A stretch of 15,440 bases of DNA. It comes from Campylobacterota bacterium. GTDB taxonomy: Bacteria; Campylobacterota; Campylobacteria; Campylobacterales; Sulfurimonadaceae. Numbering within the stretch: the first letter of the stretch is position 1; each line of letters begins with the position of its first letter. The stretch covers positions 1 to 15,440 of the forward strand of contig JAYEMF010000068.1 of assembly GCA_034717975.1 (NCBI GenBank), read 5' to 3'. Position numbers and translations under genes: made by a program. A model generated the notes under the pieces. The model did not search any database. It saw only the letters and a program-made list of their open reading frames with translations, and was not told the DNA's origin. Of the stretch, positions 2,263 through 7,072 are shown piece after piece.

Positions 2263-3039
2263 TTATTTTAAAATAGTATAGAGATGATGATAGTCGTTGG
2301 TAGTTACCTGATGAGGGCGGATGGAAGGAACCAGTCCCCGCTGCGCGATGGCGGCATGAACGGCTTCTTTCTCATACGTTGCCGAGAGATTTTTCTGGAG
2401 TGTCTTACGCGGCTGGGTAAAAGCCGATTTTAAAAACTGTTCAAACACTTCATCATGTCGATCTGCCGTTTTTTGAATGAGCAGGACAGCAGAATCGACT
2501 TTTGGCGGAGGCTCGAAAGCGTGCGGCGGAACATTCACGACGATGCGTGAATCCGCTACACTTTGGGTTATTACCCCGAGCGCACCAAACTGTTTCTCTC
2601 CAGCTTCCGCGGCAAATTTTTTCGCCACTTCAAGCTGGACCATGACAAGCAGATTTTTACACTGTGGATCTGCAAGTGCTTTGAGGATGATGTTCGTCGC
2701 GATGTAGTAAGGCAGGTTTGCCACCAAATCGTAAGGTTCATCCAAAAGCGTACTCTGCCAAGCCTCCAAGACATCTCCACAATGGAGCCTGAAGCGGTTG
2801 GTTCTGATCGCATCTTTAAAACGTGTATTAAGGTGCTTGCATAAGTCGGTATCGACCTCAAAAGCTTCTACACTTTTGACATCAACCAAATAATTGGTTA
2901 AATCACCTAAGCCAGGCCCGATCTCGGCGATCTTATGATCGTTCAGGGGCATCGCTTCGACGATTTTTCGTAGAACACTCTCATCTTTTAAAAAATTCTG
3001 GCCAAATTTCTTTTTGGCAATGACGCGTTCACTAGACAT
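2263..3039 (-). CDS. rsmA: 16S rRNA m6,2A1518/1519 dimethyltransferase RsmA/KsgA
   Basis: KKKFGQNFL, EIGPGLG, ANLPYYI, MVQLEVA and F.PPPKVDS motifs. Confidence 0.98.
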   Translation of the reverse strand: MSSERVIAKKKFGQNFLKDESVLRKIVEAMPLNDHKIAEIGPGLGDLTNYLVDVKSVEAFEVDTDLCKHLNTRFKDAIRTNRFRLHCGDVLEAWQSTLLDEPYDLVANLPYYIATNIILKALADPQCKNLLVMVQLEVAKKFAAEAGEKQFGALGVITQSVADSRIVVNVPPHAFEPPPKVDSAVLLIQKTADRHDEVFEQFLKSAFTQPRKTLQKNLSATYEKEAVHAAIAQRGLVPSIRPHQVTTNDYHHLYTILK

Positions 3040-3054
3040 TGATACATTATATCT
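3040..3054 (-). promoter_or_regulatory. sigma70-type -10 box for rsmA, probably leaderless
   Basis: Minus strand reads aagaTATAAT-gtatca-ATG. TATAAT (3046-3051) is 6 nt from the start codon and there is no SD. Confidence 0.7.
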
Positions 3055-3134
3055 TGTTATCTCTTATAAAAAGTTGATAACTTATGTCATTCTATCTATC
3101 TGTTTGCTCTTTGAATGAAAAAGTAACTTTTTGT

Positions 3135-3267
3135 AAACAGGTCAATCAGTCAGGTCATTGCTAGAAGGAGATATGCGCTATGGCCAGGGAGGAGAACCTG
3201 GCGAAGCTTTGAATCTTATTTAGGAGTGAATAAATGAAGCTCTCTTCACTGCTGCAACTGAAGAGAT
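3135..3267 (-). ncRNA. Candidate small RNA with three C/U-rich (CUCCU) loops, CJnc190/RepG-like architecture
   Basis: Intergenic, with its own promoter and a predicted +1 A at 3267. Consecutive hairpins: UCUCUUCA/UGAAGAGA; UUAUU-cacuccua-AAUAA inside AGCUU/AAGCU; GCCAGG-uucuccuc-CCUGGC; CAUaGC-gcauaucuccuucua-GCaAUG. The 3' end is uncertain. Confidence 0.6.
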
Positions 3268-3273
3268 GGCAAA

Positions 3274-3294
3274 AGTATAAACCATCTTGGTTAA
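3274..3294 (-). promoter_or_regulatory. Orphan sigma70-type promoter driving the candidate sRNA
   Basis: Minus strand TTAACC-aagatggtt-TATACT-tttgcc-A. The same TTAA(C/G) plus -10 layout occurs upstream of yajQ and the helicase in this window. Confidence 0.65.
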
Positions 3295-3330
3295 TCGATT
3301 GTAAATAGTGAGCACCTTTAAAAGAAGAGG

Positions 3331-4770
3331 TTAAGCATTAGCAGCTGCGCGCTCTTCCACTATGGCATCAAGCAACACGAAAAGCTGCCCTGAAGCTCCT
3401 TCCATCGTTGCAAAGTTCTGGACGATGGTTTCCCGGTTATTACCATCCAATGTCGTACCATTTTGGACAAATACAAGGCTGTCAAGGACAGCGTTATGTA
3501 CGATCTGGTGTGGTTTATCCATTAATGCATATGATTTCGTGGCACCAAAATGTTCTTTACCGGCGGCATCATACCATTTACCCATACGGCAGTTGTGATG
3601 GTCAGCAAACTTCTCCTCTTTTTGTTCATTTATAACCGCCGCGTAGGCACGTGATTTATAGATAATGTGATCTACTTTGACCAGGGTTGTAAAGAGTTTA
3701 CTCTGGATTGAGACAGCCGTATTTGCCGAACTTCTTGCCGTTTCAGAAAAGCTTTCGAAGGTGCTTTCAAACTCCTGGATCACACCGGAGGACTCTTCGG
3801 CGATCTCTGTGATCTGCTCGGAGTTGCTTTGCATATCGGAAGATTCCTGCTGCAGGGTCGAGATGGTTATCTCTATCTCATGCGTCGCCTTCTGGGTACG
3901 CTCTGCCAGCTTTCTCACCTCATCGGCCACAACTGCAAACCCACGTCCATGTTCACCTGCACGTGCCGCTTCGATGGCGGCATTGAGAGCGAGGAGGTTG
4001 GTCTGATCTGCGATATCTTTAATGAGATTGACTACATCCGAGATCTCACTTGAACGTTCACCAAGGCTTATGATCGCCTCATGAGAGTGACCGATCAGCT
4101 CAACAAGCCTGCCCAGCTTACTGCTCATATCGACAACATTTTGCAGGCTCTTTTGCGACTCTTCTGCCGTCTGCTCCGAAGAGCTGACTATCTCTGATGC
4201 AGAAGCCTCTGTCGTCATGAGATCTTTTTGGATCACCTGCAGGCCTTCTGCCAGACCGCCGCCCAGGGAACCAAGCTGATCGGAAAGTTCAGCACGCAGC
4301 TTTGTTCTATAGCCCGCTGCAATCGTACCGACGGCTTCCCCTACCTGCTGAGAGTTCGTACGAAACAGACCATGCAGACCTTTGGGATTGCTCCGACGAT
4401 AGATTTTACCCGAAGAGGCGGATTTGATAGCCGTTGCACTATCCCGCATATAGGCTTCGAGCTGATCGAGCAGATCGTTCACGGCCCAGGCAACCGCTTC
4501 CTGAGCTTTATCGTCTGAGTGTATCTGGATGATCCGTGCTTCAAGGTCACCCTTGGCAGCGCTCCTGACAACTCTGCCTATCTCATCTCTAAGGTGCGGA
4601 TTTGATGCCGTTCTTTCCGATGGGATGAACAACCCGATCACCATAGCGGCCACTGCAATACCAGCAACAATCATCCCGTCTGTCAAAAGAGCAACAGTGA
4701 TAATCACCGCAAGAACAGCATACAAAAACAGCAGCTGCTTACTCTTGAATAGTGATGATAAATTCATCAT
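3331..4770 (-). CDS. Methyl-accepting chemotaxis protein: two N-terminal TM helices, HAMP-like linker, MA domain, C-terminal CZB zinc-binding domain (CetA-like)
   Basis: [40 protein letters not shown] signature. CZB-like HIIYK...[11 protein letters not shown]...PHQIVH. SD AAGGAG. Confidence 0.93.
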
Positions 4771-5224
4771 AGCTTACTCCTTTATCTGCCAAGAGATCGT
4801 TTAATAGCCTGCCGGAAGCCTCCATGCCGCCGCTGCGTTCTGCATCGACCATCTTGGCATAAAGCGGCTTGATGATCTCAAGTGCTTTGGGGTTTGGCTT
4901 GCGGCGTACCGAGTAGTAACCGATGATATTCCCTCTATCATCCAGCGAAGGCGTAACATTCGCATAGACCCAGTAGTGGTTTCCCTTGGCCGTCTTGTTG
5001 ACTACAAAAGCAAAGATCTCATCTTTGTTCTGCACCCTGTCCCAAAGCAGTTTGAAGACCGTTTTGGGCATATCTGGATGACGAACAATACTGTGCGGTT
5101 TCCCCAGCAGATCGGCTTCACTGTACTCTGCCAGATCCATAAATATCTTGTTGACATAGGTTATGCGACCTTTCGTATCTGTCTTCGAGACGATAAAGTC
5201 ATTCTCATTCAGTGTACGTTCCAT
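4739..5224 (-). CDS. Stand-alone Aer-type PAS sensor (CetB-like), probably FAD-binding
   Basis: [50 protein letters not shown]. The ATG at 5224 has an AAGG SD and is preferred over the TTG at 5239. Overlaps the MCP start by 32 nt. Confidence 0.92.
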
Positions 5225-5400
5225 ACAGAACCTTTCCAAAAATATCTAACAATAATAGTACGTGCTATCTAAAGCATTGCTAAAAGTACACTCTAAACGA
5301 CTCTTTTTAAACTATAAAAAAAACCTAATGAGCTATTTACTGTCACCCGAACTCAAACAAGATGAACCATTTCCGCTACCAGCCACTTTTTGACAGTATC

Positions 5401-5416
5401 TGCTATAATTCGGCCC
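5401..5416 (+). promoter_or_regulatory. Extended -10 promoter for RDD-MFS, probably leaderless
   Basis: TGcTATAAT (5401-5409) is followed by 7 nt and then the ATG at 5417, with no SD. Confidence 0.7.
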
Positions 5417-5923
5417 ATGCGATGGCGAGATATAAAAAAAGGCAGAACAGCTGCCCCCGATAACAACAATACACCTACTGTGGCCTATGCCGGTTTTCTT
5501 GTCAGGACAAAAGCCCTGATAACCGATCTGTTCATGATCTATGCCCCTATCCTCTACATCATCACTTACCTGGTGATGGGCGGCAAGGATGATTTCCAGT
5601 CCTCCCAGCTGGCTCCGCTTGTCGGGGTCACTCTTTATGCTCTGATCTATGCCGTTTTACTGGCAAGATCCGGTCAGACCCCCGGCAAAAAAGCCTATGA
5701 CATTAAAGTGGTAGATGCCGAAACATTTGAAACACTCTCCTTCTTCAGGGCGCTCCTGCGTTTCGTATCGTTTCTCTTCTCGGCCATGACACTTCTGGGG
5801 ATATTGATGCTCTTCTATCGAAGCGATAAACGAACCCTGCATGATCTGCTTAGCGGAACTGCCGTTATTTATGAGGGAAGAAGCAAGAAGGAAGAGGGAA
5901 AAGAAAATTCTGTTGGCACTTAA
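5417..5923 (+). CDS. RDD family membrane protein
   Basis: YAGFLVRTKALITD, GQTPGKKAYDIKVVD and KRTLHDLLSGT motifs plus hydrophobic segments. Start moved to ATG 5417 because the upstream TTG lies inside the promoter. Confidence 0.9.
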   Translation: MRWRDIKKGRTAAPDNNNTPTVAYAGFLVRTKALITDLFMIYAPILYIITYLVMGGKDDFQSSQLAPLVGVTLYALIYAVLLARSGQTPGKKAYDIKVVDAETFETLSFFRALLRFVSFLFSAMTLLGILMLFYRSDKRTLHDLLSGTAVIYEGRSKKEEGKENSVGT

Positions 5924-5957
5924 CCCCGCTTTCCACTCTCCACTTCCCTCTTCCCTG
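5873..5957. repeat. Inverted pair of degenerate heptamer arrays
   Basis: GAGGGAA GAAGCAA GAAGGAA GAGGGAA AAGAAAA (5873-5907), then TTTCCAC TCTCCAC TTCCCTC TTCCCTG (5930-5957). Confidence 0.7.
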
Positions 5958-5974
5958 GCAACCAGAGGTTTTCA

Positions 5975-7072
5975 GTGCTAGCATTTTTAATCGCCGCCTT
6001 CTATTTTTTCTACTTTGCGATCATCGCGGTCTACGTCATCTTTATGCCAAAAGTACTCGATATGGTCGGCTATCTCCCCTCCGAGATCGGGATCATCTTC
6101 GCCGCTGCCCCGCTGGTACGTTTTGTGGTCCCATTCGCCTTCATCAAAGGTCTGCAGCTTAACCGTACCATCTTCAATGCCGCCCTGGCCGTGATGAGTC
6201 TGAGTGCACTCGCCTTTTTCCCTGCTCTGCACTCATTCTGGGGGCTGCTGGTCGCCAATATATTCCTCGGTATCGGGCTCAGTCTGATCCTGCCCTATAT
6301 CGAAGTGATCGCTCTGGCAGAGATCGGCAAAGAGCGTTACGGAAAGATCAGGCTGTTTGGTTCCGTCGGCTTTATTGCCGTTGCTCTGGTGCTGGTCAAA
6401 TTCCTCTCTTCGCCGGAGGTCGCCATCGGCTATCTGGCAGCGACAACCATCCTGACAGCCCTGTTTGGATACAGCATCGCCCGTCATGAGATACGGCTTG
6501 CACAGCCGGCTCCGCTCGAAGGTGGAAGGGAGCTGAAACTGCTTGCACACTGGCCACTATGGCTGGGGCTTGGGCTGATGCAGGTGAGCTTCGGTCCTTT
6601 TTACAACTTCTTTACCATCTACGAGACCGATCACGGCGTCAGCCTCGATATGACCATCTACCTCTGGTCATTCGGTGTTGTTGTCGAAATATTTATGCTC
6701 TATTTTCAGGGTCCGCTGCTTCGCCGAAACCTGTTGGGTATCTTACAGTTCACCACTGCAGCAACAGCCTTGCGCTGGCTTCTCGTCTGGCTCTTTCCCG
6801 ACAATCTCACCATTCTGTTCTTTTCGCAGGGCATCCATGCGCTCAGTTTCGCCCTCTTTCACTCGGCAGCCATCAGCTACCTCTTCTCCCTCTATACCGA
6901 ACAGAAACTGGCTCAGCAGTTTTTCTTCGGTATCTCGTATGGTCTGGGCGGATTTGCAGGGGCGGTCAGTGCAGGCTATATCTATGAGTGGTGGCCGCAG
7001 CAGCTCTTCTTGAGCGCGGCACTGATCGCCATCGCTGCATTTGCCGCTCTGAAACGGGCGGAAAAGATTTAA
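5975..7072 (+). CDS. MFS transporter (MFS_1-like; HcaT/maltose-permease-like group)
   Basis: About 12 hydrophobic helices; YGKIRLFGSVGF and HALSFALFH motifs. GTG start with AGAGG SD. Confidence 0.88.
   Translation: MLAFLIAAFYFFYFAIIAVYVIFMPKVLDMVGYLPSEIGIIFAAAPLVRFVVPFAFIKGLQLNRTIFNAALAVMSLSALAFFPALHSFWGLLVANIFLGIGLSLILPYIEVIALAEIGKERYGKIRLFGSVGFIAVALVLVKFLSSPEVAIGYLAATTILTALFGYSIARHEIRLAQPAPLEGGRELKLLAHWPLWLGLGLMQVSFGPFYNFFTIYETDHGVSLDMTIYLWSFGVVVEIFMLYFQGPLLRRNLLGILQFTTAATALRWLLVWLFPDNLTILFFSQGIHALSFALFHSAAISYLFSLYTEQKLAQQFFFGISYGLGGFAGAVSAGYIYEWWPQQLFLSAALIAIAAFAALKRAEKI

Follow-up and report, generated by a model that had tools for sequence, protein, structure and literature searches.

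Does the gap between a chemoreceptor gene and rsmA in a member of the Sulfurimonadaceae encode a small regulatory RNA (sRNA) and, if so, what would that RNA bind? The window analysed here, a 15,440-nt stretch of DNA from a Campylobacterota bacterium, carries on its minus strand, in this order, a gene for a PAS protein of 166 residues (4739–5239), a chemoreceptor (MCP) gene with MCPsignal and CZB domains (3331–4770), a gap of 291 nt (3330–3040), rsmA (RrnaAD, the 16S rRNA dimethyladenosine transferase; 2263–3039) and rnj (RNase J; 171–2204). Genes for RDD and MFS_1_like proteins lie at 5390–7072. Pfam confirms the flanking genes named in the initial annotation, an MCP gene upstream and rsmA-rnj downstream, and a sequence check located every string that it had quoted at its minus-strand coordinates. 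Three CTCCT motifs within 70 nt, which had drawn attention to the gap, occur at 27 places in the 2.52-Mb genome, so the triple motif is unusual, not unique; the element as a whole is single-copy in this genome. We favour as on balance probable the reading that the minus strand from 3307 to ~3181 is the gene of a trans-acting sRNA, one of a family spread through the Sulfurimonadaceae, which would pair with Shine-Dalgarno (SD) regions, that of ccoN among them.

The promoter carries the first part of this argument. It reads TATTTAC-N6-TTAACC-N9-TATACT (3307–3274, minus strand), with TATTTAC at 3307–3301, TTAACC at 3294–3289 and the −10 box TATACT at 3279–3274, and was assigned from the sequence and from a family-wide pattern match; a consensus scan of the minus strand from 3040 to 3330 found no consensus promoter or terminator. 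TTAACC had been taken as a −35 box, and that part of the proposal does not stand, as it forms the proximal half of a tandem repeat with TATTTAC at an 11-bp period. That a minus-strand promoter is present is upheld by the family: the pattern TATTTAC-N6-TT(A/T)AC(C/T)-N8-10-TA(A/T)A(A/C)T occurs in 118 of 353 Sulfurimonadaceae genomes, which represent 13 of 23 genera, and nearly always once per genome, compared with three matches for the control, the same pattern read backwards, in the same search. Carriers include many g2-type genomes. TTTAC-N6-TT(A/T)AC sits 9–10 nt upstream of the −10 box in all pattern matches, the promoter blocks are invariant in alignments A1–A3, and it is the promoter, not the RNA, that is the best conserved part of the locus. 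The predicted transcription start is an A at 3267 on the minus strand, 7 nt after the −10 box by the spacing read from the sequence. This start, as first proposed, fits a 5′ end, AUCUC, that is conserved among homologues: A(U/C)CUC begins six to seven bases after the −10 box in homologous loci and recurs in most of 21 aligned homologues, the g7 and g16 rows deviating. Genus g17 has no exact match to the promoter pattern in its 66 genomes. Variants with two mismatches gave hits in 31 g17 genomes, which is the control level and led us to discard them; four of five such sites that were inspected precede protein genes and the fifth a tRNA-like stretch. A sigma-54 reading of TGG..TTGC near the −10 box was likewise set aside, its spacing being off by one and its sequence unconserved.

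A tandem repeat with an 11-bp period near the −35 position is the usual site layout of OmpR/PhoB-family response regulators. The layout seen here, with 11-bp tandem direct repeats next to or overlapping the −35 position, corresponds to it and suggests a regulator of the OmpR/PhoB type as the likely candidate activator. There is a precedent for OmpR-type direct repeats footprinted in a Sulfurimonas promoter, namely the TTACA repeats of SulR in Sulfurimonas hydrogeniphila between −51 and −17 (PMC12936845). An OmpR-family gene lies 3′ of the sRNA in g7; it was rejected as the cognate regulator, its best match in the window's genome being just 37% identical.

The genes around the promoter vary. 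RDD and MFS_1_like orthologues stand divergently just upstream of it in g5, g8, g21, g23 and g2, and an MCP gene is inserted between them and the promoter in g1 (the genus of the window), g18, g16 and one g5 genome. A relative of the window's own MCP lies just upstream in G001, G002, G019, G017 and G079, with a weak match in G066. Downstream, rsmA follows the sRNA only in g1 and g18 (2 of 13 promoter-bearing genera); a B12-binding radical-SAM gene takes its place in g21, g23 and g2, and a convergent bipA in g5. The element of G041 lies away from rsmA and faces the end of a convergent ORF, antiporter-like as named from its translation, and in G017 the element and rsmA are on different contigs. 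This pattern of neighbours indicates a single orthologous locus in which the promoter and a short RNA are what stays constant. With its own promoter conserved independently of the genes on either side, the element is very probably an independent sRNA gene, as judged from these comparisons.

The same evidence bears on two cis-acting alternatives. The RNA could be the processed 3′ UTR of the chemoreceptor mRNA, lacking a promoter of its own: just ~24 nt lie between the MCP stop codon (3331) and the repeat, the scan gave no terminator 3′ of the MCP gene, and an MCP gene is upstream in g1, g18, g16 and one g5 genome. The best conserved block of the locus is nevertheless the promoter, which persists where a divergent RDD gene, in place of an MCP gene, stands upstream, and this origin is scarcely probable. 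Alternatively, the element could be a cis-acting 5′ leader of the rsmA-rnj operon, an attenuator or RNase J feedback site with no function in trans, since it lies on the same strand directly 5′ of rsmA in g1 and g18 and no terminator-like site separates hairpin 3 (see below) from rsmA in the three g1 genomes (the window, G001 and G002). The varying gene context argues against a leader, because the same promoter and RNA face a convergent gene in G041 and precede radical-SAM genes or bipA elsewhere; many homologues moreover end at their own terminators, and the interval between hairpin 3 and rsmA is unconserved even within the genus. In addition, rsmA has the −10 box of its own that the initial annotation had pointed to: TATAAT at 3051–3046 (minus strand), 6 nt 5′ of the rsmA ATG (3039), is probably the rsmA promoter, and since it stands only 6 nt before the ATG, a leaderless rsmA mRNA is suggested. 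A leader function is thus very unlikely, and the sRNA gene remains our preferred reading. Leaderless mRNAs have been noted in Sulfurimonas (PMC3847290). The radical-SAM gene 3′ of the sRNA in g21 and g23 has a like −10-to-ATG arrangement.

The structure predicted for the RNA is more compact than first described. The 160-nt stretch originally singled out (3135–3294) folds no better than shuffled sequences on either strand (z −1.17 minus, −1.91 plus). Its 87-nt core, 3267–3181, forms three hairpins with an MFE of −22.6 (z −2.36; 4 of 200 shuffles as good). Hairpin 1 (3241–3266, minus strand) pairs UCUCUUCA with UGAAGAGA around the loop GUUGCAGCAG. It is followed by a linker that can fold as a weak A/U hairpin 2 (3203–3240), which contains UUCAUUUAUUCACUCCU, with CUCCU at 3226–3222, and UAAGAUUCAAAGCU at 3218–3205; this is the most conserved segment of the RNA in the alignments. 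Hairpin 3 (3183–3202), GCCAGG-UUCUCCUC-CCUGGC, is by itself the strongest element (z −4.56; 0 of 200 shuffles). Of the CUCCU motifs reported to lie in three loops, two are indeed unpaired in loops of the MFE fold, CACUCCUA (3228–3221) in the weak A/U hairpin and UUCUCCUC (3196–3189) in hairpin 3. The third, in the C/U-rich patch AUAUCUCCUUC (3174–3164), falls in a 78-nt stretch (3182–3105) that is unstructured (z +1.29), so the four consecutive hairpins of the original description reduce to the three of the core. The AUAUCUCCUUC patch is part of the RNA only if the transcript passes hairpin 3; at the corresponding position G001 and G002 are likewise C/U-rich, with a different sequence. A long-range helix that had been suggested to close a precursor for RNase III occurs in one MFE structure only, and its 3′ partner lies in sequence unconserved among relatives, which leaves it unsupported.

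Homologues were sought in several ways. When 40 relatives were searched at the DNA level, the gap proved to be kept only in the congeners G001 and G002 and in G019, of another genus, all three with an MCP gene upstream and rsmA downstream of the element. Extending the DNA search to the 353 family genomes added G041, giving four true homologues, and a GTDB-wide scan with a strict promoter-plus-linker pattern, covering one genome per prokaryotic species, returned the same four, which are by title Sulfurimonadaceae or Helicobacteraceae MAGs. Some 38 further hits of the DNA search, 20–40 nt long around TTTTGCCATCTCTTCAGTTGCA, had no rsmA or MCP gene nearby and were judged chance or gene-start look-alikes, and the one hit of a metagenome pattern scan, in AT-rich coding DNA, was attributed to chance. 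No RNA run was listed as containing the locus; a run made up of contigs, probably DNA, of relatives showed just their copies of rsmA and of the block 3221–3311.

The promoter reached further than similarity of the RNA. Among 50 promoter-bearing loci read from the 118 genomes, 37 as judged by eye (29 under a crude automatic rule) have the promoter followed by a short RNA of shared design, ~100 nt long, in which a 5′ hairpin starting A(U/C)CUC leads into a CUCC linker and then a GC hairpin whose loop is C-rich; at the other 13, a protein gene stands directly 3′ of the promoter or no RNA is recognisable. The linker reads ..UUUCAUUUAU(A/U)CACUCCUU.. in the homologues, AUAUACUCCUAUAAA in the largest genus, and CACUCCU is exposed in it in the short RNAs of the 37 loci. 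The G041 element contains UUCACUCCUU three times. By these comparisons the sRNA is most likely common to many sulfur-oxidising Sulfurimonadaceae.

The initial annotation had asked whether relatives keep the loops and show compensatory changes in the stems: the loops are kept while the stems differ, and formal covariation is weak. The CUCC loop of hairpin 3 persists on stems of GCCAGG/CCUGGC in the window, GAGUCAGG/CCUGACUC in G001 and G002 and ACCGGG/CCCGG in G041, and the terminator stems of g2 are unrelated in sequence. All pairs of hairpin 1 persist in G041, two of them as A-U in place of U-A and two as G-U. Across 13 sequences, 81% of the cells of hairpin 1 were paired, compared with 28–65% when the partner was slid; double changes affect two of eight pairs, 27 of 500 shuffles reach the same paired fraction, and five g5 sequences break two of the pairs. 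These 13 are what remained of the 21 aligned sequences once 8 with a 3′ arm misaligned by MAFFT had been removed. RNAalifold on 13 g2 and g23 sequences recovered hairpin 1 with eight pairs, two of them compensatory (covariation term −0.36), and missed the terminator because its stems do not align.

How the RNA ends differs between the window and many of its homologues. A deliberately strict finder, demanding a perfect stem and a U-run, placed an intrinsic terminator at +57 to +102 in 15 of the 37 loci, for RNAs of ~93–138 nt, and 14 of these 15 hairpins have a C-rich loop. In G041, for example, the RNA ends in AACCGGG-UUUUCACUCCUUUA-CCCGGUU and a U-run. Hairpin 3 of the window occupies the position of this terminator hairpin and has no U-run, and the finder returned none of the three g1 genomes. 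In all three there is a C/U-rich patch and then, ~60–80 nt further on, an A-run and U-run: AAAAAGUUACUUUUUC at 3132–3117 (minus strand) in the window, which may be a weak 3′ end, and AAAAAAG-U8 at the matching place in G001 and G002. Neither the consensus scan nor the strict finder scored the window's A-run/U-run as a terminator. Since hairpin 3 lacks a U-run in g1, the RNA may there be longer (up to ~150 nt) or read into rsmA-rnj.

These features also bear on the strand. The initial annotation had offered a CsrA sponge read from the plus strand as its alternative. More broadly, a plus-strand product could be an RNA rich in GGA and AGGAG, which would either titrate CsrA or act as a mimic of the ccoN ribosome-binding site; it could also be a 24-codon ORF (3234–3308, AGGAG-N7-ATG). 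The plus strand folds slightly better over the 160-nt stretch, as the z-scores above show, it has three AGGAG motifs, and it resembles a copy of the ccoN translation initiation region (TIR) with equal spacing from SD to ATG. Read on the minus strand, however, the locus has the −10 box and repeats upstream of the RNA and the U-tails downstream. The G-U pairs in hairpin 1 of G041 and in the terminator stems of G017 and G168 would be A-C mismatches on the opposite strand; together with the U-tails of the homologues, they fit the minus strand and do not fit the plus strand. Alignment with relatives revealed no conserved plus-strand promoter, the initial annotation having seen none in the sequence either, and the region where one would lie is variable. 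GGA, the motif of a CsrB/RsmZ-type sponge, is found on the plus strand, and the 87-nt minus-strand core is free of it. We rejected the 24-codon ORF as unconserved: in G001, indels directly follow the ATG and the frame ends after 12 codons, and conservation runs past this stop into the opposite-strand promoter. A plus-strand product is therefore hardly credible, and its sponge form is disfavoured by promoter, U-tails and G-U pairs alike.

For a minus-strand sRNA, the CUCC stretches held in loops or in the linker, kept in homologues despite changed stems, point to anti-SD pairing, which we regard as the rather more probable mode of action. The RNA might instead be real and mainly bind a protein or the ribosome, as a mimic of the 16S 3′ tail or as a feed to RsmA or RNase J, rather than mRNAs. 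Its UCACUCCUU motif appears to resemble the anti-SD tail of 16S rRNA, the 3′ end of which is absent from the assembly of the window's genome. RsmA and RNase J both act on 16S rRNA, and the gene stands beside rsmA and rnj in g1 and g18. The link to rsmA is nevertheless confined to those two of the 13 promoter-bearing genera, and C-rich loops that have been characterised pair with SD regions (PMC4409812, PMC4615179), so that this alternative to mRNA pairing appears highly improbable.

In order to find mRNAs that the RNA might bind, we scanned ~6,700 SD-bearing candidate starts of the window's genome, taken from a crude ORF list. The duplex of the linker with ccoN ranked second of 6,700 at −25.1 kcal/mol (mean −9.9, sd 3.2) and third of 6,696 with wider windows; the two places ranked above it are starts far inside ORFs. 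The gene was identified by its Pfam COX1 domain and by the FixO, FixQ and FixP genes that follow it in an operon. UAAGAUUCAAAGCU (3218–3205) is an exact 14-nt complement of the ccoN leader, and in the predicted duplex CUCCU additionally pairs with AGGAG and partial pairing extends as far as the AUG. Genome-wide, the number of exact 14-mers is by our estimate close to that expected by chance, and one other lies at a gene start, on a contig edge. In the six genomes with a window-type RNA, the ccoN duplex is strong throughout (−28.9 to −36.9 kcal/mol), and ccoN is unique in this among the four top candidates; the other three, genes for a RimK-like ATP-grasp protein, Amt and ExbB, were top-ranked in the scan but lose their complementarity in relatives.

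Comparison with shuffled TIRs gives a graded picture. The ccoN duplex of the window has a z-score of −4.68. Against 300 shuffled TIRs each, the values are −4.2 to −4.7 in g1, −7.7 in g18 and −4.2 in g14 (0 of 300 in each case), −2.4 in g16, −2.7 in g5 and −1.9 in g10, and the homologues of g2, g23 and g7 have no significant ccoN match by the same test (−1.0, 0.0 and −0.9). The match between linker and ccoN is kept in five to seven genomes of one subclade, and most genera conserve the ccoN leader sequence, GCUUUGAAUCUU(U)AAGGAGGCUGUAU, in any case. Pairs of sRNA and ccoN leader show no cognate advantage (−34.2 kcal/mol, compared with −34.7 for non-cognate pairs). Species-specific co-variation of the two, seen by eye as GCU/AGC, GCAU/AUGC and GCGUAA/UUACGU, was abandoned because the cross-species energy matrix did not support it. 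Intergenic RNAs of a different build in G019, G041, G086, G022 and G059 carry a CUCC..AGAUUCAAAGC seed, and its occurrence in differently built RNAs lends the ccoN pairing some independent support. Few independent evolutionary events underlie the case for ccoN, and from these sequence data we rate a direct interaction as plausible, a little short of evenly balanced.

To our knowledge, Campylobacterota lack Hfq, and the regulatory RNAs known in this phylum come almost solely from Helicobacter and Campylobacter pathogens. The CJnc190 RNA of Campylobacter jejuni represses ptmG through a C/U-rich loop. The two genera share no ncRNAs except stable RNAs such as 6S, according to one published comparison (PMC3847290), and no sRNA of Sulfurimonas was found in the open-access full-text literature (supplements aside). 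Rfam 15 gave no hit at gathering thresholds for the whole window, its RsaE and ar14 models included, and a permissive search of 2950–3420 returned five chance-level hits (E 1.3–8.1; 9–16 bits compared with cut-offs of 50–100).

By its predicted mode of action, the candidate resembles RNAs of several phyla. The RsaE/RoxS RNAs of Firmicutes pair C-rich loops and linkers with G-rich SD regions and block initiation; their transcription depends on the redox- or NO-sensing ResDE or SrrAB systems, and their targets lie in redox metabolism (PMC4409812). The candidate resembles them in its short length and in the several C-rich stretches of its loops and linker, but it belongs to a different phylum, has no Rfam match and uses a CUCC or CACUCCU motif (CCCC in g2-type homologues). 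The cuckoo RNAs of Alphaproteobacteria (ar14/CcsR/RSs0680) consist of two to four adjacent hairpins whose stems vary, whereas the anti-SD motif in their loops stays constant (PMC4615179). Hairpin 3 of the window reads CUCCUCCC across loop and stem and is in this respect alike, whereas the cuckoo loop motif, CCUCCUCCC, is not in every hairpin of the window, one motif of which lies in the linker, and no Rfam hit was obtained; the RSs0680 RNAs, moreover, are co-transcribed in dependence on RpoHI/HII (PMC4615179). Within the same phylum, RepG of Helicobacter pylori targets the G-rich leader of the chemoreceptor gene tlpB with a C/U-rich terminator loop (PMC8295292). The terminator loop of most homologues is C-rich as well; compared by description, the candidate differs in its predicted target, which combines an SD region with a longer match to the leader and is not a homopolymeric G-repeat. 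The trans-acting CJnc190, which represses ptmG (PMC8687705), undergoes maturation by RNase III, and CJnc180, encoded in cis, acts as its antagonist. In the candidate, again compared by description, the proposed precursor-closing helix is unconserved and no antisense partner is evident; the Rfam searches lend no support to homology with CJnc190. It thus looks like a new sRNA family of a kind known from RsaE/RoxS, the cuckoo RNAs and RepG.

Taken together, the favoured reading would proceed as follows. Transcription would start at ~3267 from the −10 box, helped by a regulator bound to the TTTAC-N6-TTAAC tandem repeat, and would yield an RNA whose 5′ end forms a hairpin, whose linker ..UUCAUUUAUUCACUCCU..AAGAUUCAAAGCU.. 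is exposed and whose GC hairpin carries the loop UUCUCCUC. The exposed CUCC stretches would pair with SD regions and exclude the 30S subunit. In the lineage of the window the main predicted target is the ccoNOQP mRNA, for a cbb3-type cytochrome c oxidase; the linker is complementary to its ccoN leader between ~−39 and the start codon, and CUCCU and AAGAUUCAAAG are the stretches of the sRNA proposed to contact it. In g1 the terminator U-run would have been lost, and the transcript may extend to the weak A/U element at ~3117 or into rsmA-rnj. As judged from sequence comparison, the case for the gene is strong, the mechanism appears plausible and ccoN is moderately supported as a target. A bolder version, which we hold only tentatively and think on the whole unlikely, is a family-wide riboregulator, switched on by a two-component system, that masks ribosome-binding sites and throttles the cbb3 oxidase and other products, as a convergent counterpart of RoxS/RsaE among chemolithoautotrophic Campylobacterota, with coupling to rsmA-rnj possible in g1.

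Sulfurimonadaceae dominate sulfidic, oxygen-poor habitats. The candidate locus is syntenic across at least 13 genera; its sharp promoter motif, its simple build and the prediction of a specific target, the high-affinity oxidase, make it directly testable. If the bolder version were true, coupling of the sRNA to rsmA-rnj in g1 would link respiratory control with ribosome maturation and RNA decay. If confirmed, the sRNA would be a third independent case of C-rich loops masking SD sequences and would offer a handle on how respiration is tuned at oxic-anoxic boundaries.

Upstream of the candidate small RNA (sRNA), the minus strand of the window carries at 3331-5239 a gene for a PAS-only protein of 166 aa and one for an MCP+CZB chemoreceptor, with the former overlapping the start of the latter by 32 nt. 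The pair resembles CetB and CetA, the bipartite energy-taxis system of Campylobacter. A relative of this MCP gene lies immediately 5′ of the sRNA promoter in the genera g1 (that of the window), g18 and g16 and in one g5 genome, and one g21 genome has a weak match to it upstream of the promoter. On the other side of the sRNA, a −10 box, TATAAT or GATACAAT, lies 6 nt 5′ of the ATG both at rsmA (window 3039-3051) and at the radical-SAM gene 3′ of the sRNA in g21 and g23 (loci L121 and L124). The rsmA and radical-SAM mRNAs are probably leaderless.

Opposite the sRNA, the plus strand holds an ORF of 24 codons whose start, AGGAG-N7-ATG, is perfect (window 3234-3308). This frame is not kept as an ORF in relatives, and it mirrors the ccoN-like seed.

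The sequence ATTAAC-N5-TTTTAC-N..-TATACT marks a second promoter-like site in the window's genome (G000:C149:43330-43452, minus strand), found with a relaxed promoter pattern that also gave one match in the control. Downstream of it, a stem formed by GAUAAAGAG and CUUUUUAUC encloses UCAUUUCUUCUCCCUUUAA, and the ORFs on both sides are convergent; this site could encode a second C/U-rich sRNA. In some genomes, protein genes (L120, L126, L134-L137 and others) are preceded by the repeat-plus-(−10) pattern of the sRNA promoter and could be further members of one regulon with the sRNA. A candidate cognate regulator is the OmpR-family response regulator encoded directly 3′ of the sRNA in genus g7 (G008, L117 1772-2419). 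The window's genome contains no close orthologue of it, the best match having 37% identity.

The seed CUCC..AGAUUCAAAGC of the sRNA is also present in differently built intergenic stem-loops of five genomes (L092, G019:C3; L093, G041:C352; L098, G086:C37; L109, G022; L110, G059). The one in G019 has a stem of 16 bp, inside which 21 nt are perfectly complementary to the ccoN leader of the same genome. All of them may be additional anti-ccoN RNAs. Besides the one in the ccoN leader, the window's genome has a single 14-nt stretch exactly complementary to the sRNA, UAUUCACUCCUAAA, which lies in a gene start at a contig edge (TATACT..UUUAGGAGUGAAUAUGAAAUAUAAA; G000:C92:1-60, minus strand, L182), with only seven codons before the contig ends.

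The ccoN 5′ leader itself, GCUUUGAAUCUU(U)AAGGAGGCUGUAU-AUG (G000:C120:16356-16415 in the window's genome, equivalent to L057 141-200; also loci L061-L091), was compared across 27 leaders from Sulfurimonadaceae and is near-invariant in the majority, among them leaders from genera in which this sRNA was not found. Something that is itself conserved acts on the ccoN leader.
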